A stretch of DNA of 64,000 nt from Nitrospinaceae bacterium (GTDB taxonomy: Bacteria; Nitrospinota; Nitrospinia; Nitrospinales; Nitrospinaceae): positions 1,024,001 to 1,088,000 of the forward strand of contig OZ250172.1 of NCBI GenBank assembly GCA_965237905.1, in the 5' to 3' direction. Positions 39,218-63,654 of this stretch are shown here, in pieces. Below the pieces are notes generated by a model. The model saw only the letters and a program-made list of their open reading frames with translations, searched no databases and was not told the DNA's origin. Position 1 is the first letter of the stretch, and each line of letters opens with the position of its first letter. The translations under genes and the position numbers were made by a program.

Positions 39218-39547
39218 ATGTCCATTGAAGAAACTGAAGTTATTGATTTTATTTCAATCGATAAATCAGCAGGTGCTGTCCATCTAACCATTTCGGATCA
39301 TTTGGAATGGGAAGAAAAGGAAGGCGAACACCTTTTATTATTACAAGATAAAATCAATGCATATTTGAGGTTTATAGAGGGCGGCGAATTAGAGGAAACA
39401 TATCCTAAAGCAAAAGGAAAAAAAATTGTGATAAGTATTGTCGGCCAGTATCCTCTAAGTCAGGAAGCAAAAAAGTTCTATGATATGGCCGCAGGGATTA
39501 CCGAGGAAGCAGGAATTCAATTGGAATTTAAATTAGCTGAAGATTAA
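39218..39547 (+). CDS. DUF6572-like small protein
   Basis: VIDFI, LTISDHLEW and LLQDKINAYL.FIE pattern; AT-rich. Confidence 0.65.
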   Translation: MSIEETEVIDFISIDKSAGAVHLTISDHLEWEEKEGEHLLLLQDKINAYLRFIEGGELEETYPKAKGKKIVISIVGQYPLSQEAKKFYDMAAGITEEAGIQLEFKLAED

Positions 39548-41231: not shown

Positions 41232-41264
41232 AAAACCCGCTCTCTTTTTAGAGAGCGGGTTTTT
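41232..41264. terminator. bidirectional intrinsic terminator
   Basis: AAAACCCGCTCTCT/AGAGAGCGGGTTTT stem between convergent genes. Confidence 0.85.
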
Positions 41265-41312: not shown

Positions 41313-41864
41313 CTACTTCTTTTCCCCGGCCTCAGTTGTCTGCCCGAATGTTTGAGCGATGACCTCGTTAATAGCCTTCTCACCTAAAATATTATATACA
41401 GCATTTGCCGACTTGAAGTGGGCACTGGTGAACAGGCTCATTACCTTTTTACTGGAATACCCGAGCATCATAAATTCGTGGGCGTAATTTTCGGCCACCA
41501 GGCGCAGGGTTTTATCGTCCGCGTCTTCGTCGCCGGTGGGCGGGCCTTCATCAGGATTGATATCGTCCTTGACCTCGTATATGTAGATCAAATGCCAGCC
41601 GAACTCGGTTTTAATGGGCCCGACCACATCCCCCTCCTCCGCGCTGAACGCGGCCACTTCAAAGGGGCGAACCATGGCACCTTTCCCGAACCAGCCCAAG
41701 TCGCCGCCGCGTTTTTTGGAGGGGCACTCGCTGTACTCCTCGGCCATTTTGGCGAACTCGGCACCATCATCCAATTTCTGATTTATTTCATCCGCCAATT
41801 CCTTGGTCGCGACCAGAATGTGGCGGGCCTGAATTTTTTTGACTTTCTTATCTGGATTGCTCAT
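41313..41864 (-). CDS. parvulin PPIase with extra C-terminal domain
   Basis: ARHILV, GGDLGWF and TEFGWHLI motifs, plus a ~55-aa helical extension. Confidence 0.85.
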   Translation of the reverse strand: MSNPDKKVKKIQARHILVATKELADEINQKLDDGAEFAKMAEEYSECPSKKRGGDLGWFGKGAMVRPFEVAAFSAEEGDVVGPIKTEFGWHLIYIYEVKDDINPDEGPPTGDEDADDKTLRLVAENYAHEFMMLGYSSKKVMSLFTSAHFKSANAVYNILGEKAINEVIAQTFGQTTEAGEKK

Positions 41865-41897: not shown

Positions 41898-42698
41898 TCA
41901 ATTTAATTTCAAACCACAACATTTTTTGAATTTTTTTCCGGACCCGCAAGGACACATTTCATTGCGTTGGACCTTGTGGGGTGTGACTTCCATTTTGGGT
42001 GAAGATTTCAACAATTCCTCACCAATCTGCTTGGCTTCCTTGTAACGCTGTTTCAGAATATCGTTGAGATTGGGAATAAACCGGATAAACTCCATAAGGA
42101 GTTCACTATTCGCCGGCTCGAGCTTGGCTTCCTCCTCTTCCCGGTTTTTCTCATTGAAATAATAGGTGTAGGGGAAAATAGGAGGCGGGCGATCTTCGGC
42201 GTGATCAAATTTGTAAAACGTCAGTTGAACGCTTTTGTTATCATTGCGCGGATCCAGCTCATAGGCCTCTTCGACGAAATGCTTGTTCTCATTATATTTA
42301 AAATCCAGCAGTTGTTTCGCCCGGGGGAACAGTTCCATATAGTTGACATAGCGTCCCGACTCGAACACGAGATAGGACATGGGGTTATTCTCCCCATAAG
42401 CCTTGGCCTCCATGTACCTCTGTTTGAACAGGATGATCATTTCATCCGTCACTTCCGCCATGAATTCATCGAGGATGGATGTTTGGGAGTCGGTTAACTC
42501 CGGATGATTGGGCAGGATTCCCTGTGTTTTATCGAAGTTCAACAGAAAGGAAAACCGGTTATCGTCGTCTTCCTTGTCACAAAGGGAAATGGTGACATGA
42601 TTGCAATCACAAAAAGGATTGGTGCAATAGTAATCTTCCAGAATGTAGAGACTTTTGAAATCTTCTTCCTCAAACCGGTAGGTCATGACCGAGTTCAA
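41898..42698 (-). CDS. SEC-C motif protein
   Basis: C-terminal RNEMCPCGSGKKFKKCC and N-terminal YCTNPFCDC. Confidence 0.85.
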   Translation of the reverse strand: MNSVMTYRFEEEDFKSLYILEDYYCTNPFCDCNHVTISLCDKEDDDNRFSFLLNFDKTQGILPNHPELTDSQTSILDEFMAEVTDEMIILFKQRYMEAKAYGENNPMSYLVFESGRYVNYMELFPRAKQLLDFKYNENKHFVEEAYELDPRNDNKSVQLTFYKFDHAEDRPPPIFPYTYYFNEKNREEEEAKLEPANSELLMEFIRFIPNLNDILKQRYKEAKQIGEELLKSSPKMEVTPHKVQRNEMCPCGSGKKFKKCCGLKLN

Positions 42699-42770: not shown

Positions 42771-43199
42771 TCACTCTTCTTCCGTGATGATCCTCACCGC
42801 CCGGATGGAATCCTTGGACGGATCGTCCCGGTTGTTGACGTTGGCGTGGCCATATCGATAATAAAAGATCACCGCCCCATTATGGGGTTTCAGGTCGCTA
42901 GTCCAGGTGGTGTAGCCCCCTCCCGGAGAAAACGCACTGTCGATAAATATTTCAAACCGGTCGCTGTCGCGAATGGACGTTTCCTCGACAAACAGGCTTT
43001 CCGCTTCCTCCAGGTTTGGCATGTGCCAATCGTTATAGCCGGCAAACTTTTTATTGTTCAGTTCCCGGATGTAATCCTCGGCCTTGTACCAGGTATGGAA
43101 TATACTCTGGTCCTGGAATCCGTCGGTTTGCTTCCACATCAAACCTTCTTCCGTATCCGTGACGGTTCCATCCCCGTTATCTTTAAACCGTTTTCCCAT
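42771..43199 (-). CDS. DUF1566 (Lcl-type) domain protein 1
   Basis: RFKDNGDGTVTD..GLMW, GYNDWHMPN and SIRAVR motifs. Confidence 0.85.
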   Translation of the reverse strand: MGKRFKDNGDGTVTDTEEGLMWKQTDGFQDQSIFHTWYKAEDYIRELNNKKFAGYNDWHMPNLEEAESLFVEETSIRDSDRFEIFIDSAFSPGGGYTTWTSDLKPHNGAVIFYYRYGHANVNNRDDPSKDSIRAVRIITEEE

Positions 43200-43220
43200 C
43201 GAAAGCGCTTGTCCGTCCGA

Positions 43221-43682
43221 TCAAACCTTGTTCATATCACGTACCAGACGGGTGGATCCCCGCGAAACCCGGTAGACGTCGTCGTACATCATCCCGCCCT
43301 TGCGGTAACCGAAGCGAACGGCCTGAATTTTATTCCGCACGTCGCTGGTCCAACACAAAAATCCGAACCCACCGGGGAAAAGAGAATGCAAATAAGCCTT
43401 TTGCCCCATATGATCCTTATTGATCTGGTTTTTATCGTATAAACTTTTCGCCTCTTCCGTCGTGGGAAGCCGCCAGTCGTTGTAACCGGCATAATGAGAC
43501 TGGCTCAACTCTTTCGCATAATCGCGGGACTGAACCCAGTTGAGCCATTTACCGGTCATCTGATACGTATCCTGCCTGAGCCAAACCAGCTTCCGCGTTA
43601 GATCGATCACCGTATGTTCATCCGCCTCGGCAAACCGCTCCTGAACGGCGGTTGAAGCAGGCGTGGGTTCGGAGGGACTCAT
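43221..43682 (-). CDS. DUF1566 domain protein 2
   Basis: TVID..LVW, GYNDWRLPT and TRLVR motifs. Confidence 0.85.
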   Translation of the reverse strand: MSPSEPTPASTAVQERFAEADEHTVIDLTRKLVWLRQDTYQMTGKWLNWVQSRDYAKELSQSHYAGYNDWRLPTTEEAKSLYDKNQINKDHMGQKAYLHSLFPGGFGFLCWTSDVRNKIQAVRFGYRKGGMMYDDVYRVSRGSTRLVRDMNKV

Positions 43683-44572
43683 TATTCCTTTTCCTCTGGC
43701 AGCAGTGTTCGTACCGCGCGTACGCCGTGGCTTCGCAGTCCTTTTTTATGAAACTTATGATCCCCGCTGTAAAAGTTAAACCGCATCGCTATGCTGTCGT
43801 CGGTTTTATGCAGGGTTTTGGTCCAGGTGGTCTGTCCCGCACCGGGCGGAAACACTGGGACCAGATACAGGGTATCGCCATAAGTGTCGATTACGGGATT
43901 GTTGGGATCGTGGATGGATTGCGCCTCTTTACGTGTGGGCAATCTCCAGTCGCTGTGACCGCCGAATTCCTCTTTGTTGAGCACACTGACTTGGACCTTG
44001 GCCTCGGACCAGCTGATCCATTTGTCCAAATCCAGGTAGGAATCGTCCTGCTTCCACATCAATCCCGTTTCCAGATCGCTGACGGTACCATTGTTGTGAA
44101 CCACATAGCGCTCTTCCGGGGGCAGTTTTGATTCGGCCGTGATGGAGCGGACGGGACGGATGCCGCTGGGGAATCCTTCATTTTCGCGGGCCAGCCAAAA
44201 TTCGTAATCGGCACGGAAATCGTAACCCATCGCCGCCTTGGCGCCGCGGGTTTCGGTGGTCCAGGTCGTGTACCCGCACCCGGAAGTAAATACTGGATCG
44301 ATGTGAGCTTCACACCCCTCCATATCGGTATTGCTGAATTCGGGATCATACAACTCGCGGGCTTCCTGGCCGTTGGGAAATCGCCAGTCGGAGTGCCCAG
44401 CGAATTTTTTTTCGTTCAGCTCTTTGATGTATTCCTGGCCTTGCCACCACGAAACCAGTTTACCGAGCTTCACCCAAGTATCGTCCTTGGCCCACATCAG
44501 GTTTTTTCGAGTATCGGTGACGGTTTCATCCCCGTTATCAATAAACCTGGTTTTAACTTTGGTTCCGCTCAT
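43682..44572 (-). CDS. tandem DUF1566 domain protein 3 (two domains)
   Basis: Two copies of NG.TV.D..LMW / GHSDWR.P / R.VR; ATG 44572 follows GAGG. Confidence 0.85.
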   Translation of the reverse strand: MSGTKVKTRFIDNGDETVTDTRKNLMWAKDDTWVKLGKLVSWWQGQEYIKELNEKKFAGHSDWRFPNGQEARELYDPEFSNTDMEGCEAHIDPVFTSGCGYTTWTTETRGAKAAMGYDFRADYEFWLARENEGFPSGIRPVRSITAESKLPPEERYVVHNNGTVSDLETGLMWKQDDSYLDLDKWISWSEAKVQVSVLNKEEFGGHSDWRLPTRKEAQSIHDPNNPVIDTYGDTLYLVPVFPPGAGQTTWTKTLHKTDDSIAMRFNFYSGDHKFHKKGLRSHGVRAVRTLLPEEKE

Positions 44573-44585
44573 AATAGTGGTTTCC

Positions 44586-45095
44586 TCAAGTGTTTCTTCT
44601 GCGACCAACGGTTTTGACCGGGTCTTTGCGGCAGATTCTTACCGACCCGAACGCATATTCATCGGCGCTGGCGATTTGGCCCTGGGTGTAATCGAACCGG
44701 GGCCGCCGTGTAGAGGTGTCCGCCATGGTCCATTGCATTTTGAACGAACCTTCGGGAAACAGGGAATCGATATGAACCGTTTCGCCGGTTTTGCCGGTAT
44801 TCTCCCACTCTGCATCGTACAGGGTGGCCGCCTCTTCGTTGGTCGGTAAGCGCCAGTCCGAGAATCCGCCAATTTTACGTACATTCTTTCTTTCGGCGTA
44901 GTCTTTGGATTCATGCCAGTTGAAATATTTTCCTTTGTCCTGCCAGGAATCTTTTTTCAGCCAGTACATTCCCGTTTGGGTGTCCTGGATCACCAGGGGT
45001 CCGTGTACCACGAACCGCTTGGGACCTTCTTCAACGACTTCCAGTTTGTCGGTTTGCGCGTCGTGAACAACCGGTTTGGTTTCCTCGTCTGCCAT
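44586..45095 (-). CDS. DUF1566 domain protein 4
   Basis: IQDTQTGMYW, GFSDWRLPT and SVRICR motifs. Confidence 0.82.
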   Translation of the reverse strand: MADEETKPVVHDAQTDKLEVVEEGPKRFVVHGPLVIQDTQTGMYWLKKDSWQDKGKYFNWHESKDYAERKNVRKIGGFSDWRLPTNEEAATLYDAEWENTGKTGETVHIDSLFPEGSFKMQWTMADTSTRRPRFDYTQGQIASADEYAFGSVRICRKDPVKTVGRRRNT

Positions 45096-45111
45096 AGCGT
45101 GACTTCTCCCC

Positions 45112-45327
45112 TTAATCGGTATAGCCGATTTCGACGTTATCTTCATCGACGTTGACAATCACCGGAATCACATAATCCCCGTTGGAATATTCCAGCATTT
45201 TCTCAAGACCCTGAGGATTGCTCTCCACATTGACATAGATAAAAGGTTTGCACTGTTTTTTATAATCCTGACGGGCCTTGGTAGTGTAAGGACAATCGTC
45301 TTTCCCAAATATCATGTAGTGACTCAC
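45112..45327 (-). CDS. glutaredoxin-like protein (UXX-star family 1-like, Cys form)
   Basis: IFGKDDCPYT and VIPVIV motifs; GTG start after GAGAGG. Confidence 0.7.
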   Translation of the reverse strand: MSHYMIFGKDDCPYTTKARQDYKKQCKPFIYVNVESNPQGLEKMLEYSNGDYVIPVIVNVDEDNVEIGYTD

Positions 45328-45357
45328 AACAACACCTCTCTTCGAGCACAAGCGATT

Positions 45358-46011
45358 TTAACCATCGAACTTTTTGGTCTCGCTCCGCCAATCGGGTTCC
45401 CACGACTCTTTCAGTTCATCGCGGACGGCCCGGACATGGCAAAATTCGTTATCCTTGTGTTCCCACATATCGTTACCGGTAACGTAGCTGAAAATCATGG
45501 CGTATTGCTGAAAATCCGGCTTTTCCTCATACGTCCAGGTATTGTGTCCGCCGCCGGACGCGAACAGAGGATCAATATGGACTTCCGCGCCGTCCTTGTC
45601 CTGGTTGGATACGGCAAACGCGAACAGCGATTTGGCCTCATCAAAGCCGGCCAGCCGCCAATCGTCGAAACCAGCGAATTTTTTTTCGTTCAGTTCCTCG
45701 ATATAATCGTTGGATTCAAACCAGTTGATGCCGTAACCAAAGTCGGCAAAGGAGTCGCTTTTTTTCCACATCAGATTGGAGATGGAATCGCTGATGGTTT
45801 CGTTGCCGTTATCAACTAACTGGGGAACATCCGGCTCTTCCTCTGCCTCTGCCTCCTCCTCGATTTCCTCCCACTCGTCGTCGCCGATCCACTCGTCGGC
45901 GTCGAAGCCTTCTTCATCTTCAAAGTCGTCATCGAGCGGCAGGGTCTTTTTGGCTTCCTCACCGGGGACTTCTTTTTCTTCCGACGGGTCCTTCACTTCT
46001 TCTTCGGACAC
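45358..46011 (-). CDS. DUF1566 domain protein 5 with acidic N-terminus
   Basis: ~60-aa Asp/Glu-rich leader; DNGNETISD..LMW, GFDDWRL and HVRAVR motifs. Confidence 0.85.
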   Translation of the reverse strand: MSEEEVKDPSEEKEVPGEEAKKTLPLDDDFEDEEGFDADEWIGDDEWEEIEEEAEAEEEPDVPQLVDNGNETISDSISNLMWKKSDSFADFGYGINWFESNDYIEELNEKKFAGFDDWRLAGFDEAKSLFAFAVSNQDKDGAEVHIDPLFASGGGHNTWTYEEKPDFQQYAMIFSYVTGNDMWEHKDNEFCHVRAVRDELKESWEPDWRSETKKFDG

Positions 46012-46057
46012 GGTGGCTCTCCTTATCGCCGCTCAATCAAAGCGGCGGGTTATGAAT

Positions 46058-46498
46058 TCAAGCGTCCCTGACCAGGCGAACCGAGGTTCCCGTGGTCGAG
46101 ACCTGCTGGTCCACACACACTTCCTTGATGACAGGGAAATAACATTTCCAGGCGTAGGAATCGTACCGGGTTTCCGAGGTCCAGTAACTCCATTCCCCAC
46201 CTGCCTGATAATTGGCAACGGAACGTTTTTTTTTGGCGGGAAGGTTCACGAACAGCGCCTCATAGGCTTCCTTCGCTTTGAGCAGGCCTCGCATTTCGCT
46301 TTTCGTGGGCAATCGCCAGTCGGTGGTCCCCAGATATTTCTGCTCGTTACAAGCCTCCCGGTAGGCGTTGGCCTCATCCCAATTGAGCCATTTGCCCAAT
46401 TCCTGCCGGGAGTCTTTTTTGACCCAGATCAAATCCTCGTCCACTTGAGCTACGGTTCCGTCACCATTATCTTTAAACAGTTTTTCCCAATCCGCCAT
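46058..46498 (-). CDS. DUF1566 domain protein 6
   Basis: FKDNGDGTV, GTTDWRLPT, YWTS and SVRLVR motifs. Confidence 0.85.
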   Translation of the reverse strand: MADWEKLFKDNGDGTVAQVDEDLIWVKKDSRQELGKWLNWDEANAYREACNEQKYLGTTDWRLPTKSEMRGLLKAKEAYEALFVNLPAKKKRSVANYQAGGEWSYWTSETRYDSYAWKCYFPVIKEVCVDQQVSTTGTSVRLVRDA

Positions 46499-46700
46499 AT
46501 AATTGCCAAAACCCAAAACCAACTTCTCGTTTTGGGTTATTGTGAATTTTTTAGAGCGGCCCTACCCCTTTGGAGGGTGGCCCCCTAACACCCTAAATTT
46601 TAAGAAAGTTTACCGTTAAAGTATCACCCACCCGGCTATATTTCAATACCTAACCAAGAGAAAACTGTCCGACCGCCTATTTTTACCAAATCCTTATAAA

Positions 46701-47195
46701 TCAGCGCTGATCACTGATCATCATGCCTCTTTTAGGCGGAATTTTCCCCAAGGAGGCTTTGGATTCCTCGTCCATGGTTCCCCGCACCAGGCGAACGCTG
46801 GTATCCAGGGTGTCGTCTACCTCTTTATGGCCTCCAGTGCCACTGGCAAAGGAAAACACATAAGCGGTGATCCTGCCTCGGGAATTGCTGGTCCAGGTGT
46901 CATAGCCACAGCCCTCGGTAAAGACCGGATCGATATACAAGGCCATTTCGTACTTGTCCTGGATGGATTTTTCCTTCTCCCTGTAATACAGGGAATGCGC
47001 CTCTTCCTTGCTGGGCAGTCGCCAGTCGCTGTATCCCGCGAAGGATTCTTCATTCATTTTAGCCATGAGTTTTTTAGCGGCGGCATAGACCAGAAATCTT
47101 CTAAAAATGTTGTAGGAATCTTCTTGCATCCACATCAGATTAGATTTGTGGTCGGTCACGGTTCCGTCGCCATTATCTACAAATCGTTCTTCCAT
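46701..47195 (-). CDS. DUF1566 domain protein 7
   Basis: RFVDNGDGTVTD..LMW, GYSDWRLPS and SVRLVR motifs. Confidence 0.85.
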   Translation of the reverse strand: MEERFVDNGDGTVTDHKSNLMWMQEDSYNIFRRFLVYAAAKKLMAKMNEESFAGYSDWRLPSKEEAHSLYYREKEKSIQDKYEMALYIDPVFTEGCGYDTWTSNSRGRITAYVFSFASGTGGHKEVDDTLDTSVRLVRGTMDEESKASLGKIPPKRGMMISDQR

Positions 47196-47266
47196 ACTTG
47201 CCTCTTAAAATTCTATTTGCAAATTTCCACTTAAAGTTTAGATCAGGTCCCCGGAACATTGGGTTC

Positions 47267-47301
47267 AAAAAAAAGCCGGAAGGTCGAAACCCTCCGGCTT
47301 T
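47267..47301 (-). terminator. intrinsic terminator
   Basis: GCCGGA/TCCGGC stem with an A8 tract (U-tract on the minus strand). Confidence 0.75.
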
Positions 47302-47326
47302 GCTAATACAGATGTAAGAGTGAAAC

Positions 47327-47818
47327 TTAGCGATTGGCCTCAGACTTGGCGCCCGTAACACCGTAGATACCGCGCTCGGTGCCTTCCGGCATACCCAGAG
47401 TCGGCTCGATGTACGTGCCCGGCTGTACGTGGTCCATATGGTAATTGGACTGATACGTTTTACCGGAACCCGCGTCGATTTTCCAGTCATGGCGGTCAAA
47501 GCGCTGACGCTGACAGTTCACCACAATGGTACCCGGGCCCTTGTTCCAAAAGTCTGTTTTCATAGCAATCGAACCGGCCTGATACCCACCGGGAGCAATC
47601 ACTCTTGTCATTTTTTTGCCCCAATTGTAGCCCCAAGGGCCAATATCAAATGTTACCGTGGTGGATTTGGTCTCACTGGTGTTGTAGAAAATCCACGAGG
47701 CGTTTTCACAAACACTGTGTCCCCCCGACTTAAGGTTTGTTTCATTGGCGGCGGCCAAGGACGCGAAGGCCAACAGAACGAAAGCCACGGACAGGACGGC
47801 AATTAATTTTCTTACCAT
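47327..47818 (-). CDS. secreted hypothetical protein
   Basis: Signal peptide (LAAA-N), two Cys, GGGGGAG RBS. Confidence 0.75.
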   Translation of the reverse strand: MVRKLIAVLSVAFVLLAFASLAAANETNLKSGGHSVCENASWIFYNTSETKSTTVTFDIGPWGYNWGKKMTRVIAPGGYQAGSIAMKTDFWNKGPGTIVVNCQRQRFDRHDWKIDAGSGKTYQSNYHMDHVQPGTYIEPTLGMPEGTERGIYGVTGAKSEANR

Positions 47819-48128
47819 TGTGCTCCCCCTTTCAAATTGGTGGTATTTAAGAACACTACTTTTATTTTATATATACAAAAGTCAACTGGACTCAAAAACT
47901 CTTTTTGAACGCGGACCGCACTTTTGAATAACATTCAAAATCCGCACGTTAGACACTGCCCCATGGCCGACCCCTCGTGAGAGCCCACCACTAGTCTCGT
48001 ATGGAGGGGAAAATATCAAAACCCGCCTACCAAGTCAAGGTATAAATTTTAACACAATCCCTGAATTATAATCCCATAAAAAACAAAGGGTTACCTGAGA
48101 ACGGGGCCGTTCCCTGCAAATCCCCTCG

Positions 48129-48524
48129 TCAGACCTGAAATTTGAGGGAAGTCAAATTTATCAAGTGGGTGGAGTTCATCAGAGCCCGCTCCCCTTCCTC
48201 AGTCAAGTCGTTGACCACCAGCTGGATGGATTTCAGATTGCCCAAGGTGGTGGAATTGGCAAGAAATTCAGCACCGACATCGGTGATACGATTGGACTTC
48301 AAGTTTAACGTTCTCAAATTGGAAAAGAGGGGCGACTCAGCGACCGCTTTGACTCCCACATCTCCGATATCGTTTTGCGAAAGGTCCAACGCACGCAAGG
48401 TGGACAATTCTTCGCATTGAGCCAACTCTTTCGCACCGACTTCACGAATATATTTGGCTTTGAGGTTGAGCACCTGCCCGTCTTTACTCAGATGGGTTTT
48501 AATCAGTTTTTTTATATCCGCCAT
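48129..48524 (-). CDS. leucine-rich repeat protein
   Basis: 28-aa LRRs, e.g. LRALDLSQNDIGDVG and LRTLNLKSNRITDVG. Confidence 0.85.
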   Translation of the reverse strand: MADIKKLIKTHLSKDGQVLNLKAKYIREVGAKELAQCEELSTLRALDLSQNDIGDVGVKAVAESPLFSNLRTLNLKSNRITDVGAEFLANSTTLGNLKSIQLVVNDLTEEGERALMNSTHLINLTSLKFQV

Positions 48525-48568
48525 AAATGAGCCGCTTCCATGATCTTTTAAATTAAGTTCAATTAAGT

Positions 48569-49372
48569 TTATCCCAAACCTGGGATATCTTTAGCTTCAA
48601 ATCCATATTCGTCAAACGCCTTCCATCCCACGGCCAGCATTTTCTTGGCGTACTTGGACATCAAGTTGGCCTGGGAATGATTGGGATCAATTTCCAGAGT
48701 CTTTTTAATCAGCTTCAGGGCTTTTTGAACATCCTGGATTTCGCTTCCATATTTGGCGATCTGACGGGATTTGTCGATCAGGTCCGATCCCCACTTGTAA
48801 TAAATATTGGCCAGTTGAACCGGCGCTTCCTTACTGATGAAGTCTACCAGCTCGTCATCGGCTTTTAACTGCGGGAGAAATTCCATAGCTTTCTGAAAGT
48901 GATGGATCGGAACTGCGTAATCTTCCTCGAAAACCTCGACGATGGAATCCCCCGGCTTGTGAGCGGAATGCAAACCGATAGAGCTCTTCACCACCACGGA
49001 TTGGATTCCGGACAGTAGCTGATGAAAAATCAGATTGCCCATTCCATAATGGATGATCGCATGGAAGTCCTGTTCCGTATCGCATTCGAGAGCGCGTTCG
49101 TATTCGGCTTTGGCTTCTTCCCTGTCTCCCAATTCTTCCAGCGCTTCTGCCAGATTGTAATGATGAACACAATTGTCCGGATCTTCTTCAAGAACGGCAC
49201 GAAACTCCTCGATTTGCGCCTCCAGATCGAACTCTGCCAGCTCCCCTCCTTCCTTCTCAAGCTTGTCGCGGGCCGCTTCGTCCTCCTCGACTTCTTGCAG
49301 GTTGGGATCGATCTCTTCTTCAGCCGCCGTTTGCTCCGGCACGGTGTTTTCTTCTTTATCTTCGGGACTCAT
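48569..49372 (-). CDS. TPR protein with acidic N-terminus
   Basis: HYNLAEAL..A...YERAL and LEIDPNH motifs. Confidence 0.75.
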   Translation of the reverse strand: MSPEDKEENTVPEQTAAEEEIDPNLQEVEEDEAARDKLEKEGGELAEFDLEAQIEEFRAVLEEDPDNCVHHYNLAEALEELGDREEAKAEYERALECDTEQDFHAIIHYGMGNLIFHQLLSGIQSVVVKSSIGLHSAHKPGDSIVEVFEEDYAVPIHHFQKAMEFLPQLKADDELVDFISKEAPVQLANIYYKWGSDLIDKSRQIAKYGSEIQDVQKALKLIKKTLEIDPNHSQANLMSKYAKKMLAVGWKAFDEYGFEAKDIPGLG

Positions 49373-49401
49373 AGTCTAAAGAATTTCCATAGGTCGGAGG
49401 C

Positions 49402-50073
49402 TCATTTTCTTGCCAGTTCTGAACCGTTGTTATCGCGTACCGCGCGAATCACACTGAGAGAATGCTGAATGCCCCCCTTCATGCTCGGATACGCCTTACC
49501 GCGGATATAATTATATCCCCAGGCCATATCGCCCTTGGCCTCTTCACTGCTCCAATAACAGCAATGGCTCTTCCCGAATATGGGATCGATATGCAGTTCG
49601 TTTTTGGTCCAGTAATAGTTCCAGGGAACCGATTGCTTTTCATCAAACAGAGTGGCCAACTCTTTACGGGTCGGCAAGCGCCAGGTACCCGCTCCCCCAA
49701 ATTTGGCTTCATTCAACTCGCGGATATAATCCTGGGCCTTATGCCAGTTGATCCACTGCTTGCGGACTTGATACGAATCGATCTGAACCCAGATCAGTTT
49801 TGTTTCGAGATCGGTCACGGTTCCGTTTTTATTATCCTGGAACCGAGGGTTATCGGAGGAGGGAGCGACGTCTGTTTTCGGCTCGGTCAACGTCAAAATC
49901 TGCCCGCCGAATTCATAATCCGTCTTGTCTTCCTTGGCCTGTTGCGCCGTCGGATTATCCGGTATCGGTTCGCCTGCCAGACCTGCAGAAGGAACAACCG
50001 CCAAGGCGATCGCCAAAAGTATTGCCTTCAATACCGGAAGGGCCTGCCGTTGAACCGGGTTGATCTCTGCCAT
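49402..50073 (-). CDS. DUF1566 domain protein 8 (exported)
   Basis: Hydrophobic signal-like N-terminus; RFQDNKNGTVTD, TWRLPT, YWSS and IRAVR motifs. Confidence 0.82.
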   Translation of the reverse strand: MAEINPVQRQALPVLKAILLAIALAVVPSAGLAGEPIPDNPTAQQAKEDKTDYEFGGQILTLTEPKTDVAPSSDNPRFQDNKNGTVTDLETKLIWVQIDSYQVRKQWINWHKAQDYIRELNEAKFGGAGTWRLPTRKELATLFDEKQSVPWNYYWTKNELHIDPIFGKSHCCYWSSEEAKGDMAWGYNYIRGKAYPSMKGGIQHSLSVIRAVRDNNGSELARK

Positions 50074-50089
50074 GCGTTGCCTCCTCACG

Positions 50090-51124
50090 CTACTCGTCCA
50101 TGGGAACCCAATCCGGCTCCCAAGACAGACACAACCCGGAGGGATTGTGAAACTGTTTTTCCTCATTACCCACCGATCCCCATTTGGCGACAAAATTCAA
50201 ATCCGGATCGAACTTTTGAATTCGATGGTTCAGCGTATCGACGACAAACACAAACCCGTAGGGGTCTTCAACCACCGCCATCGGGCAGTTGAACTGGCCG
50301 TCGCGTTTTCCGAATTCGCCAACGACCCGGATAAAGTTTCCTTCGCGATCGAATAACTGCATCCGGTTCTGGCTTTTTTCCACCACCAGCAGGGTGCCGT
50401 CGTTGCGTACGGTCAAATCGCAGGGAAAATTGAAACGCCCTTCCTCAAACCCGTACTCGCCGAACTTGGACAGAAACTGTCCCTCTTCATTGAAAATCTG
50501 GACGCGCTGGTTGTCGCGGTCGGCCACATAAATATTGCCCTCCTGATCCACCGCGACACCCGTGGGAAATTTACAGAACCCGTCAAAGTCTCCCGGAAAA
50601 CCGAACCCCAGCAGATATTCGCCGTCGTCGTCATACCGCTTGAGGGAATGGTTATGGGTATCGGCCACCAGGATGGTTCCTCCGGGTTCGGCAAGGATAG
50701 CCTCCGGCCAGTAGAACTTTTCCTGTCCCCAACCCTCGGTTCCCACCGAAAGAATAAAATCGCCTTCCGAATCGAATTTCTGGATGCGGTGGCACCCGGT
50801 ATCCGCCACCCAGACATTGCCTTCCTTGTCCACCGCCACGTCGAAGGGTCCCTTGAACACGCCTTCGCGATAAGGCGGCCGGGTACCGGCAGATTTACCG
50901 AACTGGAACAGATATTTGCCGTTACCGTCGAACTTCTGGATGCGGTCGTTCCCGGAATCCGCCACCCAGATATACAATTTGGAGTGATCGACATCCGCCC
51001 ATTTCGGTTGCTCTTCGGGAAGAATCTCTTCCGCCCCCTCGATCACCTCCAGGGTACCGGTACCGACAGACTCCTCGGTGTCTTCTTGGTTCACTGAATC
51101 CTGCTCTAAATCATCTTGCGCCAT
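50090..51124 (-). CDS. NHL-repeat beta-propeller with acidic N-terminus
   Basis: About six F..P.GVAVD..G...VAD..N.RIQKF repeats. Confidence 0.9.
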   Translation of the reverse strand: MAQDDLEQDSVNQEDTEESVGTGTLEVIEGAEEILPEEQPKWADVDHSKLYIWVADSGNDRIQKFDGNGKYLFQFGKSAGTRPPYREGVFKGPFDVAVDKEGNVWVADTGCHRIQKFDSEGDFILSVGTEGWGQEKFYWPEAILAEPGGTILVADTHNHSLKRYDDDGEYLLGFGFPGDFDGFCKFPTGVAVDQEGNIYVADRDNQRVQIFNEEGQFLSKFGEYGFEEGRFNFPCDLTVRNDGTLLVVEKSQNRMQLFDREGNFIRVVGEFGKRDGQFNCPMAVVEDPYGFVFVVDTLNHRIQKFDPDLNFVAKWGSVGNEEKQFHNPSGLCLSWEPDWVPMDE

Positions 51125-51312
51125 TGGATATCTTTCCTGTGGCCGGTACCGATGACCGGTGCGGCCTTGTCCTGATTACTAAAGACTCTTCTAAACGAAA
51201 ACGGAAGCCGGTGAAGGCTTCCGCATTGTATGTGTTCCCGGCTCAATCACAAGCCAGTATTTATATACCACACCCATCATGGGAAAAACCTTCAGGACTC
51301 CCCATTCCAGCC

Positions 51313-51927
51313 TTATTCCACCATGAATTTTTTCACATCCAGAATCTGGTACTCGAAGTCACAGGCGCCCTGCAATTCATCCAGACGCGCATTCCATTCG
51401 CGCTTGAAGTTATCCAGATTTTCCATGTTGGGTTTTTTCTTCATCAAGCCAACTTCCTTGTACACCGGCTTGACGAGATTTTTGTGGATTTCCTGAATCA
51501 CGTTGCGGACACGGATAATACAATCCTTGGTAACCGTCTCGCGGGTCACGCCATCTACTTTTTCCAGCAAACGCAGGAAGCCTTGAACGGAGCCGAGATG
51601 CTTGAGGTAGGCTTCCGCCAGCATGTGGTTGTATTTCAAACCGCAATCAATGTAACCGGCCATCAGATAAACGCCAACATGATGATCGAACTGCACCGAC
51701 AGGGTGATGAGTTTTTGGAGATAATCAACCTCACGGAGATCCTCTTCATCTTCCTCACCTTCCTTAAGCTCTTTCGCCGCTTTGGCTTTCTCGGCTTCCA
51801 GCTCTTTTTTTATTTTTTCCAGTTCGGAAAGGTCGCCTATAGGATCTTCCTGCCGCTGATTGTCCTCGGCATCCGCAGCCTCTTGTTGGTCCTTTACTTC
51901 TTCTGTATTGGTCTCTTGTTCGCTCAA
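51313..51927 (-). CDS. hypothetical helical protein with acidic N-terminus
   Basis: 204-aa ORF, TTG start after AAGGAG. Confidence 0.7.
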   Translation of the reverse strand: MSEQETNTEEVKDQQEAADAEDNQRQEDPIGDLSELEKIKKELEAEKAKAAKELKEGEEDEEDLREVDYLQKLITLSVQFDHHVGVYLMAGYIDCGLKYNHMLAEAYLKHLGSVQGFLRLLEKVDGVTRETVTKDCIIRVRNVIQEIHKNLVKPVYKEVGLMKKKPNMENLDNFKREWNARLDELQGACDFEYQILDVKKFMVE

Positions 51928-52246
51928 TGCCTTATCTCCTTCAAAGAAACAATAATCCGCCGGAGTGCTTCCGAAAATATATTCAAAATTAACGGTTTAG
52001 ACGATTTTTGTGGAATCAGTCGGATTATATAGGTTTCCCGTCAAGAGTGTCAAGACAATAAGCCCCACGCTTTCACAGGTTTTTCACAATGGGGTTCCAT
52101 GTAAAACCCTTTGTCCCTTAAGAACTTATACGCGATCTGCCGAGTGGCAAAAAGCTCAAAAACCCAAACCCCTGATTGACAGGGAGGAGGCCCCTCAACT
52201 ATGATGAATCTCAACAAATTCCAACTATTGAGCCGAAAGTCCCATC

Positions 52247-58928: not shown

Positions 58929-60458
58929 TTAGGCCAACTCTTTTTGGGCTTCTTCGTCCTCTTCCTCGTCGTCCATGAAATCGTCATCGTGACCCATGAG
59001 CAGTTCAGGATCCTCGATGGCCGGATGATCGATCTCTTCATGCTTGCCATCTCTATTGGAGTCCGGAAGCTCTTCCCAGATCACGACCCGGGAATTTCCA
59101 CGGTCACAAATGTAGAGCTTGCCAATATCGTCTTCATCTTCCAGATCCTCGTCGATAAACAGCCCGTAGGGATCGTTCAGGCTACATTCGGAAGCCTCGC
59201 CGCCCCGGTTGAATTTGTGTCCGGAGAAAGCATTCTGGCCGATCACCAGGTCCGCCGGCTGACCGTTCTCCGTCGGCAGTTCCTTCCAAACCAGTACCCG
59301 GTTGTTACCGGAGTCTGACACAAACAGTCCTTTGCGGCCATAAACCACGTCGGTGGGGAAATACATCCCAACGGAGTCCGCCCGTTTCATTCCCAGCCCG
59401 CCATTGACTTCACGGCTGTAGAAATCCTTTTGACCCAACACCAGGTCTGCGGGAACACCGTTGTTCGAAGGTAATTTATTCCAGATCAAAACGCGGTTGT
59501 TGCCCTGATCCACGACGAATACTTTTCCGGTTTCCTCATGGTAGAAAGCAGAGGTGGGAAAACTGAGCGTTTCCGGAGTCACATTGTCAAAATCGCCCCG
59601 GTTGGGCTCCCGTTCATCCATGCCGAATTGTCCCAGGCAAACATCAGCATTCCAACCATCATTGAAGGGAATTTTCTGCCAGATCAAAACCCGGTGATTG
59701 TCCTTGTCCGCCACGATCACATGCTGGTCGTTGCCGGAGCGGATGGAGAATGGGAAAAACAGAGATCCCGACCCGACCAGCCCGCGCCGGTTAGCCTCAC
59801 CACACTCCAGGTTATCCTGGCCCAAAACGAGACCCGGAACTTCACCGTCCTCGGAGGGCAGGCCGTTCCAGCGAAGCACACGATGGTTGCCGCTGTCGGA
59901 CACATACAGTTTTCCGTCAATGACGGCAACTCCCGCCGGTGACGAGATGGTGTCTTCCTCCGGTTTACTGATGGTGAAACCTTCCAGGTTTTCGTCACCC
60001 AGACCGGAAGTCATTTCGTCAAGCGTGGTGCTGATGCCGCGGTTTTCCAGACAGTCGGAAAAATCCTCCTGACCCAGCACAATGCTTGCGGGTTCGCCGT
60101 TCTCTTCGGGGAACTGGTTCCAGACCAGCACCCGGTGGTTGCCCCAGTCACTTACAAACAGCATATCGCCGTAACGACAGGCGAATTGCGGTTCGGAAAG
60201 AGTGTTGTCGCCGGGATCGTCGGCTCCACGGTTGGCTTCGCGTACGGAAAAATCGCTCTGGCCGATAACCATAACCGCGCCGATCTCCTTCTCTTTCTCT
60301 TCTTCCCCACCCTCGATCTCGTCGAATTCATCCATTTCCTCTTCGGTGAGGGCATCTTCTTCAATTTCCTCTTCTTCTACTGCTTCGAGCCCTTCTTCGG
60401 CCACTTCGAGGGCCTCATCCTTGATCTCTTCTTCCTTTTTGACTTGGTCTTCAGACAT
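58929..60458 (-). CDS. NHL-repeat protein with acidic N- and C-termini
   Basis: Repeated VSD.GN.RVLVW...P..NG.PAD.VLGQ..F units. Confidence 0.88.
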   Translation of the reverse strand: MSEDQVKKEEEIKDEALEVAEEGLEAVEEEEIEEDALTEEEMDEFDEIEGGEEEKEKEIGAVMVIGQSDFSVREANRGADDPGDNTLSEPQFACRYGDMLFVSDWGNHRVLVWNQFPEENGEPASIVLGQEDFSDCLENRGISTTLDEMTSGLGDENLEGFTISKPEEDTISSPAGVAVIDGKLYVSDSGNHRVLRWNGLPSEDGEVPGLVLGQDNLECGEANRRGLVGSGSLFFPFSIRSGNDQHVIVADKDNHRVLIWQKIPFNDGWNADVCLGQFGMDEREPNRGDFDNVTPETLSFPTSAFYHEETGKVFVVDQGNNRVLIWNKLPSNNGVPADLVLGQKDFYSREVNGGLGMKRADSVGMYFPTDVVYGRKGLFVSDSGNNRVLVWKELPTENGQPADLVIGQNAFSGHKFNRGGEASECSLNDPYGLFIDEDLEDEDDIGKLYICDRGNSRVVIWEELPDSNRDGKHEEIDHPAIEDPELLMGHDDDFMDDEEEDEEAQKELA

Positions 60459-60580
60459 CGAACCCACCTCTTTTAAAACTTAATAAATGGCTCAACCGGC
60501 CGAAAACTCTCGAGTCCTCTGGTACCGGTGAAAATAAAATTGTTAGCGTACTGTATTAATATCCCATACTGGGGTTTCGA

Positions 60581-62170
60581 TCAAGGTAAATTCAACCGTT
60601 GCCACATGGAAACCACCTTTCTACCATTGCGGTCCTGATAGGCTCCATCCCACACCGCAAAGGCAATCAGGATCGGCTGCTTCTTCCTGAACTTTACGTC
60701 CCATTTGTTGAGAGACTTTAAAGACCGGCGAAAAACCACATGCCACTGGCCCTCTTTCCATATCCCCTGGCCGATAATATTTTGCTTGGTTTTCGGTTGC
60801 GGGGTCAGGGTGCCGAACCCTTCGGCGTTCAATTCTTCAATGGGCACGTCGCGGAAGGGATTCAGGGACTCGACCGGGTTCACCTCGCCGCCGAAAATCA
60901 TGACATCCATATCCATACCCTTGGTTGCGTATTCCAGCTCCTCTTTGGTTTCAATCTCCGATTGCCAATCGGCGCGCCATTGCCAGATGTTGACGGGCTT
61001 GGACCGGTTGCCCATTCCAAAGAAGGGCTCGTTGTGGCCGTGGGTGTGCAAAAGCACGTCGCCCAGGGCGAATTCCAGCGCCACGGCATCTTTGAAATCC
61101 TGATGGCGGCTGGAGGTCCGGTTGGCCACGGGATCGTCCCATACCACCCGGATGGCGATTTCCTTGTCGTTGACGACCGATTGAAACCGCACCCGATTGA
61201 TGGGATTTTTACGGGCGTTGAGCGCGATCAACTGCACGTCGTGGCTGGGCACATCCTTCCAGAGCGGACTCTCCGGATCGTCTACAATTTTCTGATCGGT
61301 TGTTTTGGAATAGAGATCGATTTCATACTCGGCCTTCTGGAGCCGGTCTACCTGGATTTTAGACCGGACATAAGCCACCAGATCCCAGCGCTCGGCATCG
61401 GTCAGATGGCTGAACGATTTCATCGGGGTGCCGTCGATGCCGGTGGTCAGGGTCATATACAAATCCCGCTTCTCATAGCCGAATTTATTGATATTGGGAT
61501 TGGTCAAATCATAGACAAATACCCGGTGATCCCAGATGTCGTACAGGGTGTCGGCCATCGGCCCGCCGCCCTTGAGGTCGGTGCCATGACAGCGGGAACA
61601 CCGCATCTCTTTATAAACTTGCTTACCCTTTTTAATGGATTCCGGGGTGGTGGATGGCGTGGGACCGGGGTCGATCGGTTTTTTGGGTTTCTCAGTTTTG
61701 AACCGGCTTGAAAAACTTTTGATGTATTCCACGACCGCAAAGGTCTCGTCGTCGGTCAGGGCCGATTCCCAGGCCGGCATCGCGGTTCCCTTGATGCCCT
61801 TGCTGATGGTTTTAAAGATATCGGAGTCGAGCGGCAGGGAGCCGGACGGGGTGGAGCGGTGTTTGAACACGCCCTTGCGAAAATCCCGCGGCCACGGGTA
61901 CAGGTAATCGATTGCCTTACCGCCGCCGTTACCATCCTCACCGTGGCAGAACGTGCACATGTGTTTGTATACGGTCGCGCCGATGGTTTTGCTGGTCTGC
62001 GCTCCGTGGCCTTTATGACCGCCGGGGTCATCGGTGTGTGCATACAACCCACCGCCATCCGGTCCTATGAACCCAAGGACGAGGGCGGTGACCAGAAGAC
62101 TCGGCAGGAAAAGGCGTCTAACGGACCTGTATTTGGGGTTTCGATAAGGTGTATAAGGTTTCATTACCAT
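60581..62170 (-). CDS. di-heme cytochrome c fused to EB_dh/DMSO-reductase type II gamma-like domain
   Basis: CTFCH and CSRCH; DAVALEF, FGMG..PVNIWQWRA, AEGFGTLT and AFAVWDG motifs; N-terminal TM segment. Confidence 0.82.
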   Translation of the reverse strand: MVMKPYTPYRNPKYRSVRRLFLPSLLVTALVLGFIGPDGGGLYAHTDDPGGHKGHGAQTSKTIGATVYKHMCTFCHGEDGNGGGKAIDYLYPWPRDFRKGVFKHRSTPSGSLPLDSDIFKTISKGIKGTAMPAWESALTDDETFAVVEYIKSFSSRFKTEKPKKPIDPGPTPSTTPESIKKGKQVYKEMRCSRCHGTDLKGGGPMADTLYDIWDHRVFVYDLTNPNINKFGYEKRDLYMTLTTGIDGTPMKSFSHLTDAERWDLVAYVRSKIQVDRLQKAEYEIDLYSKTTDQKIVDDPESPLWKDVPSHDVQLIALNARKNPINRVRFQSVVNDKEIAIRVVWDDPVANRTSSRHQDFKDAVALEFALGDVLLHTHGHNEPFFGMGNRSKPVNIWQWRADWQSEIETKEELEYATKGMDMDVMIFGGEVNPVESLNPFRDVPIEELNAEGFGTLTPQPKTKQNIIGQGIWKEGQWHVVFRRSLKSLNKWDVKFRKKQPILIAFAVWDGAYQDRNGRKVVSMWQRLNLP

Positions 62171-62618
62171 TCAAACCATCTTCGGCGACATCGATCCAAA
62201 TATTCGTGCAGTTGTGCCGGAAGTCGACCCCCAGACAATAAAACAGGGGATACTTCGAGGTGAAATAAATCACCGGTTTTGAGACGTATACCGTCAGGCT
62301 GTCGATTCTCGCACTCTGGATCGCATCCTGGATGGTCATTTTCTCGCTGGATTCCTTCCGGATAATCTTGCGAATGACCTGATAATCCAGCTTTCCATCC
62401 AAATCCAGATCGTAATAGGTGGCAATCAAACCGGGAATGCTGATCAATTCCCATCCGCGGTAGGAAGGGTCCTTCCATCCCGGTTCTTTGGGAATTTGAA
62501 CTGTATCGGACTTTTGAGATAAGGGAGGAAAGGGCTCCTGGGCGTGAGCCGGACTTTTGATCCACATCATGTGAACCAGAACCACTCCAAGAAGAAAACT
62601 GACCGAATGCGCCTTCAT
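62118..62618 (-). CDS. secreted hypothetical protein
   Basis: Signal peptide (AHA-Q) and DLDLDGKLD Ca-binding-like motif. Confidence 0.65.
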   Translation of the reverse strand: MKAHSVSFLLGVVLVHMMWIKSPAHAQEPFPPLSQKSDTVQIPKEPGWKDPSYRGWELISIPGLIATYYDLDLDGKLDYQVIRKIIRKESSEKMTIQDAIQSARIDSLTVYVSKPVIYFTSKYPLFYCLGVDFRHNCTNIWIDVAEDGLNGNETLYTLSKPQIQVR

Positions 62619-62804
62619 CCCAATGCTCCTGTAAATTCACCCCCCAGTACGTCAATTAAAGCCTAAGATTCCAAAGTACCACACTTTCCAGAGCAAAGAA
62701 AAGAATATAAAAACCTCTCCACATCCCTCTAAGTTACTGTATTTTAAATATTTATAGAGGGGGAACGTTACCCTGTCTGGGAAGAATTTTCAGGAAACAG
62801 ACAT

Positions 62805-62843
62805 AAAAAAAGGGCAAAGCGCACACAGCGCTCTGCCCTTTTT
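62805..62843 (-). terminator. intrinsic terminator
   Basis: AAAAAGGGCA.AGCGC/GCGCT.TGCCCTTTTT stem after the cytochrome c gene. Confidence 0.8.
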
Positions 62844-62858
62844 AAAAACTTAAAAAAT

Positions 62859-63302
62859 TTACTTCATCAAATCCGTGCGAATGTATTTGATGACATCCCA
62901 GATTTCCTTGTCCTTCAGTTTACCGCCGAACGGCAACATGCCCTTCGCGCCGGTACCCTTCGGTCCGTTCTTGATGACCCAGAACATTTGACCCGGAGTG
63001 ATTTTTTTCATGGTTTTTGCACAAGTGAAGTTGCGGGGTTTGGGGTTCAAAGCCACACCCAGTTTGCCGGTGCCGTCGCCTTTATCGCCATGACACATTT
63101 TGCAGGCCATGGGTTTAGCGGTCTTGGAGTAGATTTTTTTGCCTGCGGCAGCATTGGCCTTGGCGGTCTCATCTTTTTTGTAGAGACTGGCTGGAGCTTT
63201 TTTGACTTTCCGCTTTTGAGGACACTTGGCCGCGGCGAAAACGGTGTTGACCGCGAACAAAGTCAAAACGGCGAATACAAGAAATATTACAGATTTTTTC
63301 AT
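62859..63302 (-). CDS. mono-heme cytochrome c
   Basis: Signal peptide, CKMCH, PKPRNF and GMLPF distal Met. Confidence 0.9.
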   Translation of the reverse strand: MKKSVIFLVFAVLTLFAVNTVFAAAKCPQKRKVKKAPASLYKKDETAKANAAAGKKIYSKTAKPMACKMCHGDKGDGTGKLGVALNPKPRNFTCAKTMKKITPGQMFWVIKNGPKGTGAKGMLPFGGKLKDKEIWDVIKYIRTDLMK

Positions 63303-63654
63303 CGGTGTTGTCCTTTCATAAGGTATTGAATTAAGATATATCACGCAAAACGGTAAACATTAAAAACCGAGACAATCGAATTTATGAGCCGGAAGCAAAA
63401 CCGAGAGGAACCAGAGACCGCGCAAATTACCGGCGAAAAATGAGGGCTAGATTATATTTAATCTGGCACTTATGTCAACCCCAATTTCCACACAGGCCGG
63501 TTCCTGATCATCCGGCTTGACCCGGACTGCCGCCACTCCTTTAGCATTCACAATATCCAGTAAATCGGTATAAAATAAGAACACCAGTTGATTTTTCGCT
63601 GTTTACCTCCCATTTGGGACCCCAACTGTTTTTCGAGAGCATCTCTTCCAATTC

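Follow-up and report, generated by a model that had tools for sequence, protein, structure and literature searches.

The closest described relative of the proteins discussed here is Lcl of Legionella pneumophila, a single secreted adhesin with a collagen stalk, whose C-terminal domain (Lcl-CTD) belongs to the Pfam family Lcl_C (PF07603, formerly DUF1566). Lcl-CTD is a trimer on its own, and its authors suggest that DUF1566 may promote oligomer formation; it binds sulfate and glycosaminoglycans through basic residues (PMC11162425). DUF1566 is also a target class of diversity-generating retroelements (DGRs), the variable regions lying at the C-terminus of such domains (PMC5758913), and intracellular sensors with a lectin fold have been proposed (PMC8195603). 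The locus examined here lies in a 64,000-nt stretch of a Nitrospinaceae genome (contig OZ250172.1, positions 1,024,001 to 1,088,000; hereafter the window) and comprises nine Lcl_C domains on eight minus-strand genes, A1-A8, at 42771-50073. This array is the largest cluster of a genome-wide family, not a self-contained locus, and the family is retained across Nitrospinales, reported to be the ocean's most abundant nitrite oxidisers (PMC10839748).

Lcl-CTD shares the Pfam family and is the best structural match, but identity is about 20% and the model of A1 has an additional short helix (residues 27-31) that follows the W..D motif. Lcl is one stalked, secreted protein, whereas 18 of the 25 Lcl_C domains of this genome are leaderless and no collagen region accompanies them; a search for a collagen-like stalk gave no collagen family match, and A1-A7 carry no export leader. 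The DGR variable proteins (LdtA class d, TvpA, Mtd) have the same C-type-lectin (CLec) fold, and here too paralogues differ most in the C-terminal third, but there is no reverse transcriptase and no template repeat, and each orthogroup has a fixed C-terminal region. Microcompartment and gas-vesicle loci combine shell or Gvp families with a cargo enzyme. An analogy with them, drawn in an earlier sequence-only reading, holds for the clustering of many small paralogues with accessory genes and fails elsewhere: the fold is different, 16 of the 25 members lie outside the array, a terminator and two exported proteins occur within the block, and no shell, Gvp or cargo enzyme family was found by Pfam among the 16 block proteins. 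The FGS lectin-fold sensors likewise place an intracellular CLec fold beside TPR-type repeats; the present domains differ in Pfam family, in lacking fusion to an NTPase or effector, and in vertical, invariant inheritance (PMC8195603).

The domain family is already known; its order-wide, fixed intracellular use appears new. What this analysis adds is the invariant core of 23 domains and its limit at the level of the order, together with the synteny control, the pattern of domain pairs and the fusion of a U204-like domain to parvulin. No description of a Nitrospinota DUF1566 set was found in the literature searched, which lay outside subscription journals and bioRxiv supplements; neither the main text of PMC5029188 nor three supplements of PMC11428151 mention DUF1566, and the word lectin does not occur in PMC10839748.

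Order-wide retention of the Lcl_C set

Among 51 Nitrospinales genomes at least 90% complete, 49 contain 23-28 Lcl_C domains, and the remaining two, with 21 and 22, are assemblies of 370 and 280 contigs. Eighteen genomes from elsewhere in the class range from 0 to 17, and searches of sister orders did not turn up the set in this form. Each of the 18 leaderless groups has exactly one copy in every one of eight fully listed further genomes from four families (144/144 cells, which are not independent, the eight genomes being kin). Exported groups are single in 44 of 56 cells, five of them single-copy throughout and all variation falling in two groups; six domains of this table have no group assignment. 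Two genomes with 23 domains, one of only 1.7 Mb, carry exactly the core set of 18 leaderless and five exported domains. In a quick tree of this genome and three from three other families, whose deep branches carry no resolution, 23 of the 25 domains fall in clades to which each of the four genomes contributes a single member (SH-aLRT 98-100). One-to-one orthology and constant paralogue number had been named beforehand as the checks to make, and both are borne out. Against four same-genus orthologues, dN/dS is 0.05-0.20 for A1-A7, which together with the identities and the conservation bears out old paralogy.

The accessory genes follow the same boundary. The TPR gene of the block is present in all 51 order genomes and in none of seven others with the same query, and the U204 gene, at the opposite end of the block from its parvulin gene, is single-copy in 64/64 order genomes (split over two contigs in one), with one weak match in 10 others. 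Taken with the Lcl_C counts, they show that the set is order-wide in Nitrospinales. Related loci come from Nitrospin- names in 77 of 80 cases and from Nitrospirae in two; matches include Nitrospina gracilis and Ca. Nitronauta litoralis. In the nearest family, a hydrophobic segment precedes the domain in 16 of 19 copies, and these copies group with one exported Nitrospinales paralogue. An NxrA-like match occurs in 39 of the 51 order genomes, in none of four of genus g9, where the Lcl set is kept, and in three of seven genomes outside the order (39-61% identity); loss of nxr in binning is known (PMC10839748), so that these counts speak neither for nor against a link of the set with nitrite oxidation.

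Gene order was compared in 32 loci fetched from 40 relatives and chosen for a listed anchor match. The stretch from NHL to parvulin is spanned in 29, and block order is kept in 25 of these, which passes a test set by the sequence-only reading; in six of the 25, 1 kb of sequence is inserted between A8 and TPR, and A3 of one carries an in-frame stop. Four genus g9 loci have A2 and A3 swapped, other flanks and no A7, which lies elsewhere in the one genome checked. The longest co-located run at the array is 15 genes in one relative (G034) and 20 in another (G030), compared with at most 7 and 13, respectively, in 20 evenly picked 20-kb control regions each, so that block synteny exceeds background. 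The extra sequence between A8 and TPR, about 1.05 kb, is found in genus g6 (L005, L007, L008, L010, L011 and L012). A natural split of A3 in L025 was considered and rejected, the in-frame stop falling inside the first domain and probably being an assembly error.

The genome holds nine Lcl_C domains in the array and 16 elsewhere; seven of the 25 have a leader or membrane helix, and ten of the 18 leaderless ones are dispersed, usually as lone genes, most dispersed genes keeping at least one neighbour in other families. All nine array domains score above the Pfam gathering cut-off (51.7-140.8 against 34.9 bits). A leader is lacking in A1-A7 and in 0/26-31 orthologues of each gene is one seen, and it is present in A8 and in 30/31 of its orthologues. 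The co-oriented array, its seven leaderless and one exported genes and the interleaved glutaredoxin (CPYT), LRR, TPR and NHL genes therefore stand as first described, whereas the proposed locus-specific sequence variant does not. Its W.[KQ].D[ST] motif is found in 7/9 array and 9/16 dispersed domains, W...D in 9/9 and 14/16, and the strict IDP.F..G.G..TW in 3/9 and 0/16 (relaxed form, 5/9 and 9/16), and array members are hardly closer to each other (mean identity 33.5%) than to dispersed ones (32.1%). Long nucleotide repeats are absent, as had been stated: in the 20 largest families shown, DNA repeats between copies reach at most about 70 nt, are mostly 60-76% alike and lie within conserved codons. 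One exported paralogue (L047:7938-9041; G000:C1:2906938-2908041) has its Lcl_C domain behind a receiver-like domain, a coiled coil and a membrane helix, as read by eye; it is patchy among relatives, with different N-termini there.

Fold, divergent C-terminal third and domain pairing

The fold was established on A1, modelled from a 142-row alignment at pLDDT 96.4. Its best structural match is Lcl-CTD (8q4e; Z 12.2, rmsd 3.0, 116 aligned; Foldseek E 7.9e-4), followed by Bd2740, TvpA (Z 9.3), PvdO, CarF and Mtd (Z 8.6); PorKN is also among the fold matches. A model of A3 (25-row alignment, pLDDT 72, C-terminal parts below 50) gave no significant Foldseek match.

Between paralogue consensuses the C-terminal third is 29% identical, compared with 45% in the other thirds, and it is the best-conserved third within seven of nine groups. 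Its charge is fixed per paralogue (A3b +8, A2 +6, A5 -3). We take the C-terminal region of such domains to be the binding face. Divergence between paralogues with conservation within groups is therefore the pattern of fixed, different specificities, and supports the earlier proposal of a ligand-recognition set. Only a few residues recur in every group (W22 without exception, 12 others at 90%); they look structural and so speak against a catalytic site common to the whole set. Conserved Cys particular to one paralogue occur in several cases, with a single one in A2, A4 and A7; with the missing leaders, this supports the cytoplasmic location proposed for A1-A7. Strongly acidic stretches are conserved in A5, TPR and U204, with a median D+E per 25 aa of 0.62, 0.52 and 0.48, respectively; a value of 0.52 is reached by 1% of the proteins of the genome.

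Tandem pairing of DUF1566 in long proteins was not met as a description in the literature consulted. Among the best 150 of 43,932 library matches (P0018-P0167), with up to 17 domains each, 127 have an even domain number, and spacing is short-long-short in 92 of 137 long proteins. First and second members of a pair are partly separable types (98/106 and 76/106 held-out domains assigned). A3 is a natural tandem pair. A complex prediction for A1 with A2 scored 0.00 against a mark of 0.32, which by the rule of the tool counts neither for nor against pairing.

Candidate functions of the set

Because 23 domains, 18 of them leaderless, are retained one copy each, the set is likely to be an intracellular binding system and not a variable surface or defence array. 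Our preferred reading, to which we give a probability of about 0.45, is that its members are non-interchangeable intracellular protein-binding modules, each predicted to have a partner of its own, probably acting as pairs or small hetero-oligomers. An exported Lcl_C ancestor would have lost its leader and then duplicated before Nitrospinales radiated, with a distinct binding face becoming fixed in each copy. The TPR, NHL and LRR proteins, which are inherited along with the set, could be adaptors or partners, and parvulin with U204, and the glutaredoxin, might assist in folding the proteins or in holding their Cys in the reduced state. Retained in full even at a genome size of 1.7 Mb, the family would represent undescribed core cell biology of Nitrospinales, and a fold known from surface adhesion and hypermutation would here make up a fixed repertoire inside the cell. 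From the orthogroup table comes a short, testable list of proteins for cultured Nitrospina.

Several points weigh against this reading. No ligand or interaction partner of the Lcl_C set was found in this analysis, and solved relatives bind sugars as well as proteins. A scan of 92 neighbours of the dispersed Lcl_C genes showed housekeeping genes without a unifying theme, a setting as compatible with independent roles as with a common one. Leaders were called from hydrophobicity alone. The sample behind the pairing counts favours repeated cassettes, and Nitrospinales domains sort into neither the first nor the second pair type, so that the pair rule may not carry over to them. Finally, the fused parvulin described below is 52% identical to that of the block, which does not show orthology.

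The same invariance could come from stoichiometric subunits of one large hetero-oligomeric ring, lattice or compartment. Obligate paralogous subunits are exemplified by the chaperonin CCT and Sm rings, and 144 cells without loss or duplication are the pattern expected of them; A6 to A1 are spaced by at most 46 nt with one overlap, Lcl-CTD oligomerises, and the fold is common to PorKN, which forms a ring. We consider such an assembly unlikely, with ten of the leaderless domains dispersed, a terminator dividing the block, two exported proteins inside it and neither shell nor cargo family. We know of no such compartment described for Nitrospina, and a compartment is possible but unsupported. It is equally doubtful that Nitrospinales build an intracellular assembly of 18 different lectin-fold subunits in fixed positions, with TPR, NHL and LRR scaffolds and a dedicated split foldase of U204 and parvulin; such an assembly would be a bacterial structure of a new class, with its origin in the lineage of the main nitrite oxidisers of the ocean. 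The distinct, fixed C-terminal charges, with the exported paralogue whose receiver-like N-terminus and membrane helix were recognised by eye, would also suit independent sensors or carriers of a small ligand (anion, metabolite, sugar or nucleotide), as would the binding of sulfate and glycosaminoglycans by basic residues of Lcl-CTD (PMC11162425); this is quite improbable, since the leaderless members lack an output domain and their neighbours are protein-interaction repeats and folding catalysts.

A role in sensing invaders inside the cell, such as is proposed for FGS lectin-fold domains in conflict systems, has a precedent (PMC8195603), and DUF1566 is fused to TIR and caspase in distant homologues. 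Fixed copy number, purifying selection and conserved C-termini make it very unlikely, the invariance of the set arguing against defence; no FGS-type NTPase or effector is fused or linked among the block proteins, and PADLOC matched no Lcl protein, giving two weak SEC-C matches only among the 16. If the proteins were adhesins of the surface or periplasm that leave the cytoplasm without a leader of their own, by piggy-back or a non-classical route, this would agree with the founding family members being surface proteins and with exported A8 and SEC163 in the block, but a leader is missing from every orthologue of A1-A7, no conserved twin-arginine motif was seen by eye in A8 leaders, and the unit combines single conserved Cys in A2, A4 and A7 with a glutaredoxin, so that we regard this, too, as highly improbable. 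Active or recent DGR targets, suggested by the known target class (PMC5758913), are refuted for this genome. The closed, 96% complete genome has no RVT_1 match (the control matched in 3/14), blastn matches of the eight genes are confined to motifs in the N-terminal or central part of other Lcl genes, apart from one 34-nt low-complexity match, with no template-like 3' copy, and C-termini are conserved within orthogroups with low dN/dS instead of being hypervariable. With neither reverse transcriptase nor template repeat the array is not a DGR target, and a remote template, which the sequence-only reading had raised against itself, does not explain the genes; a remote DGR origin of the Lcl_C ancestor is possible.

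Block genes and their surroundings

The conserved block has 16 genes, all on the minus strand, from U204 to parvulin. The sequence-only reading overlooked SEC163 and the hairpin behind it, the sigma-70 match ahead of U204, gaps of 130-310 nt within the array, and the membership in the block of the SEC-C and parvulin genes that follow the array. The block begins behind a perfect sigma-70-type match (TTGACA-18-TATAAT, 12/12; 52024-52053, minus strand; a consensus match only) with U204 (51313-51927), a helical-looking protein of no known family, followed by a leaderless NHL-repeat beta-propeller (50090-51124), A8 with a signal peptide (49402-50073; 223 aa from the ATG at 50073), an order-specific TPR protein with an acidic N-terminus (48569-49372), a small LRR protein recognised by profile search (48129-48524) and SEC163 (47327-47818), a secreted 163-aa protein inside the array. 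Behind SEC163, an intrinsic-terminator-like hairpin (13 pairs, then a T run; 47301-47272, minus strand) divides the block. Then come the leaderless A7 (46701-47195; sited elsewhere in one genus of family f3), A6 (46058-46498; two invariant Cys, likely start 46498), A5 (45358-46011; N-terminal tail very acidic), a glutaredoxin-like gene (45112-45327), A4 (44586-45095), A3 (43682-44572; two Lcl_C domains 146 aa apart), the basic A2 (43221-43682; its start overlapping the A3 stop, TAATG) and the acidic A1 (42771-43199). A protein that contains two internal repeats and carries a SEC-C motif at its C-terminus (41898-42698) and a leaderless parvulin (PpiC-type PPIase; 41313-41864) complete the block, which ends at a bidirectional terminator-like hairpin (41232-41263). 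An Rfam search gave no match. Since the terminator and two exported proteins (A8, SEC163) split it, the block is not one cytoplasmic operon; judging from these features, it is likely to form two or more transcription units with cytoplasmic and exported products mixed.

Searches with U204 gave no PDB match by sequence at E below 0.03, no Pfam match above cut-off and nothing usable in the Atlas. In the sister family, a U204-like domain is fused behind parvulin (L281:7-837; hhalign 93.7%, E 1.9e-7; 5/6 clusters), which suggests that U204 and parvulin may act as a split folding helper. The fused gene lies upstream of MoaA-like and B12 radical SAM genes, and the radical SAM family also occurs near the block. 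Another protein joining a trigger-factor C-terminus to a U204-like domain (P0171) looks chimeric and was not used. The block parvulin has an extra, highly conserved C-terminal domain of 75 aa (41313-41541) with no Pfam match and no paralogue in the genome; shorter homologues are only close fragments.

The monothiol glutaredoxin-like protein (CPYT) belongs by score to UXX-star selenoprotein family 1 (NF041114; 79.9 against a cut-off of 72 bits). UXX-star proteins carry selenocysteine or Cys at the third position from the C-terminus. The present gene ends in TAA and encodes a Cys form without this tail; no read-through tail is conserved among 30 orthologues, whose stops vary (TAA, TAG, TGA).

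SEC163, without a Pfam or NCBIfam match, has a leader in 28 of 29 orthologues and is present in 40 of 41 genomes searched. A copy of its 53-aa C-terminus (47345-47509, minus strand; 81% identical) lies inside a YfbK-type vWA lipoprotein (L282:9351-9509; G000:C1:2005351-2005509) elsewhere in this genome; a second copy occurs in 0/40 relatives, and this one may be a strain-specific insertion or an assembly artefact. In one metatranscriptome, contigs that are 80-99% alike (0.06 of words) span 29 of 30 bins, and their depth is 545 over SEC163 and 0-21 in bins away from it; such contigs cannot show transcription, nor can their depth rank genes.

Elsewhere in the window, a DUF6572 gene (39224-39547) lies between serC and serA with low GC around it, and is present in only one of the fetched loci reaching that place. 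A second NHL protein adjoins c-type cytochromes (58929-63344), one of which has an ethylbenzene-dehydrogenase-type heme domain.

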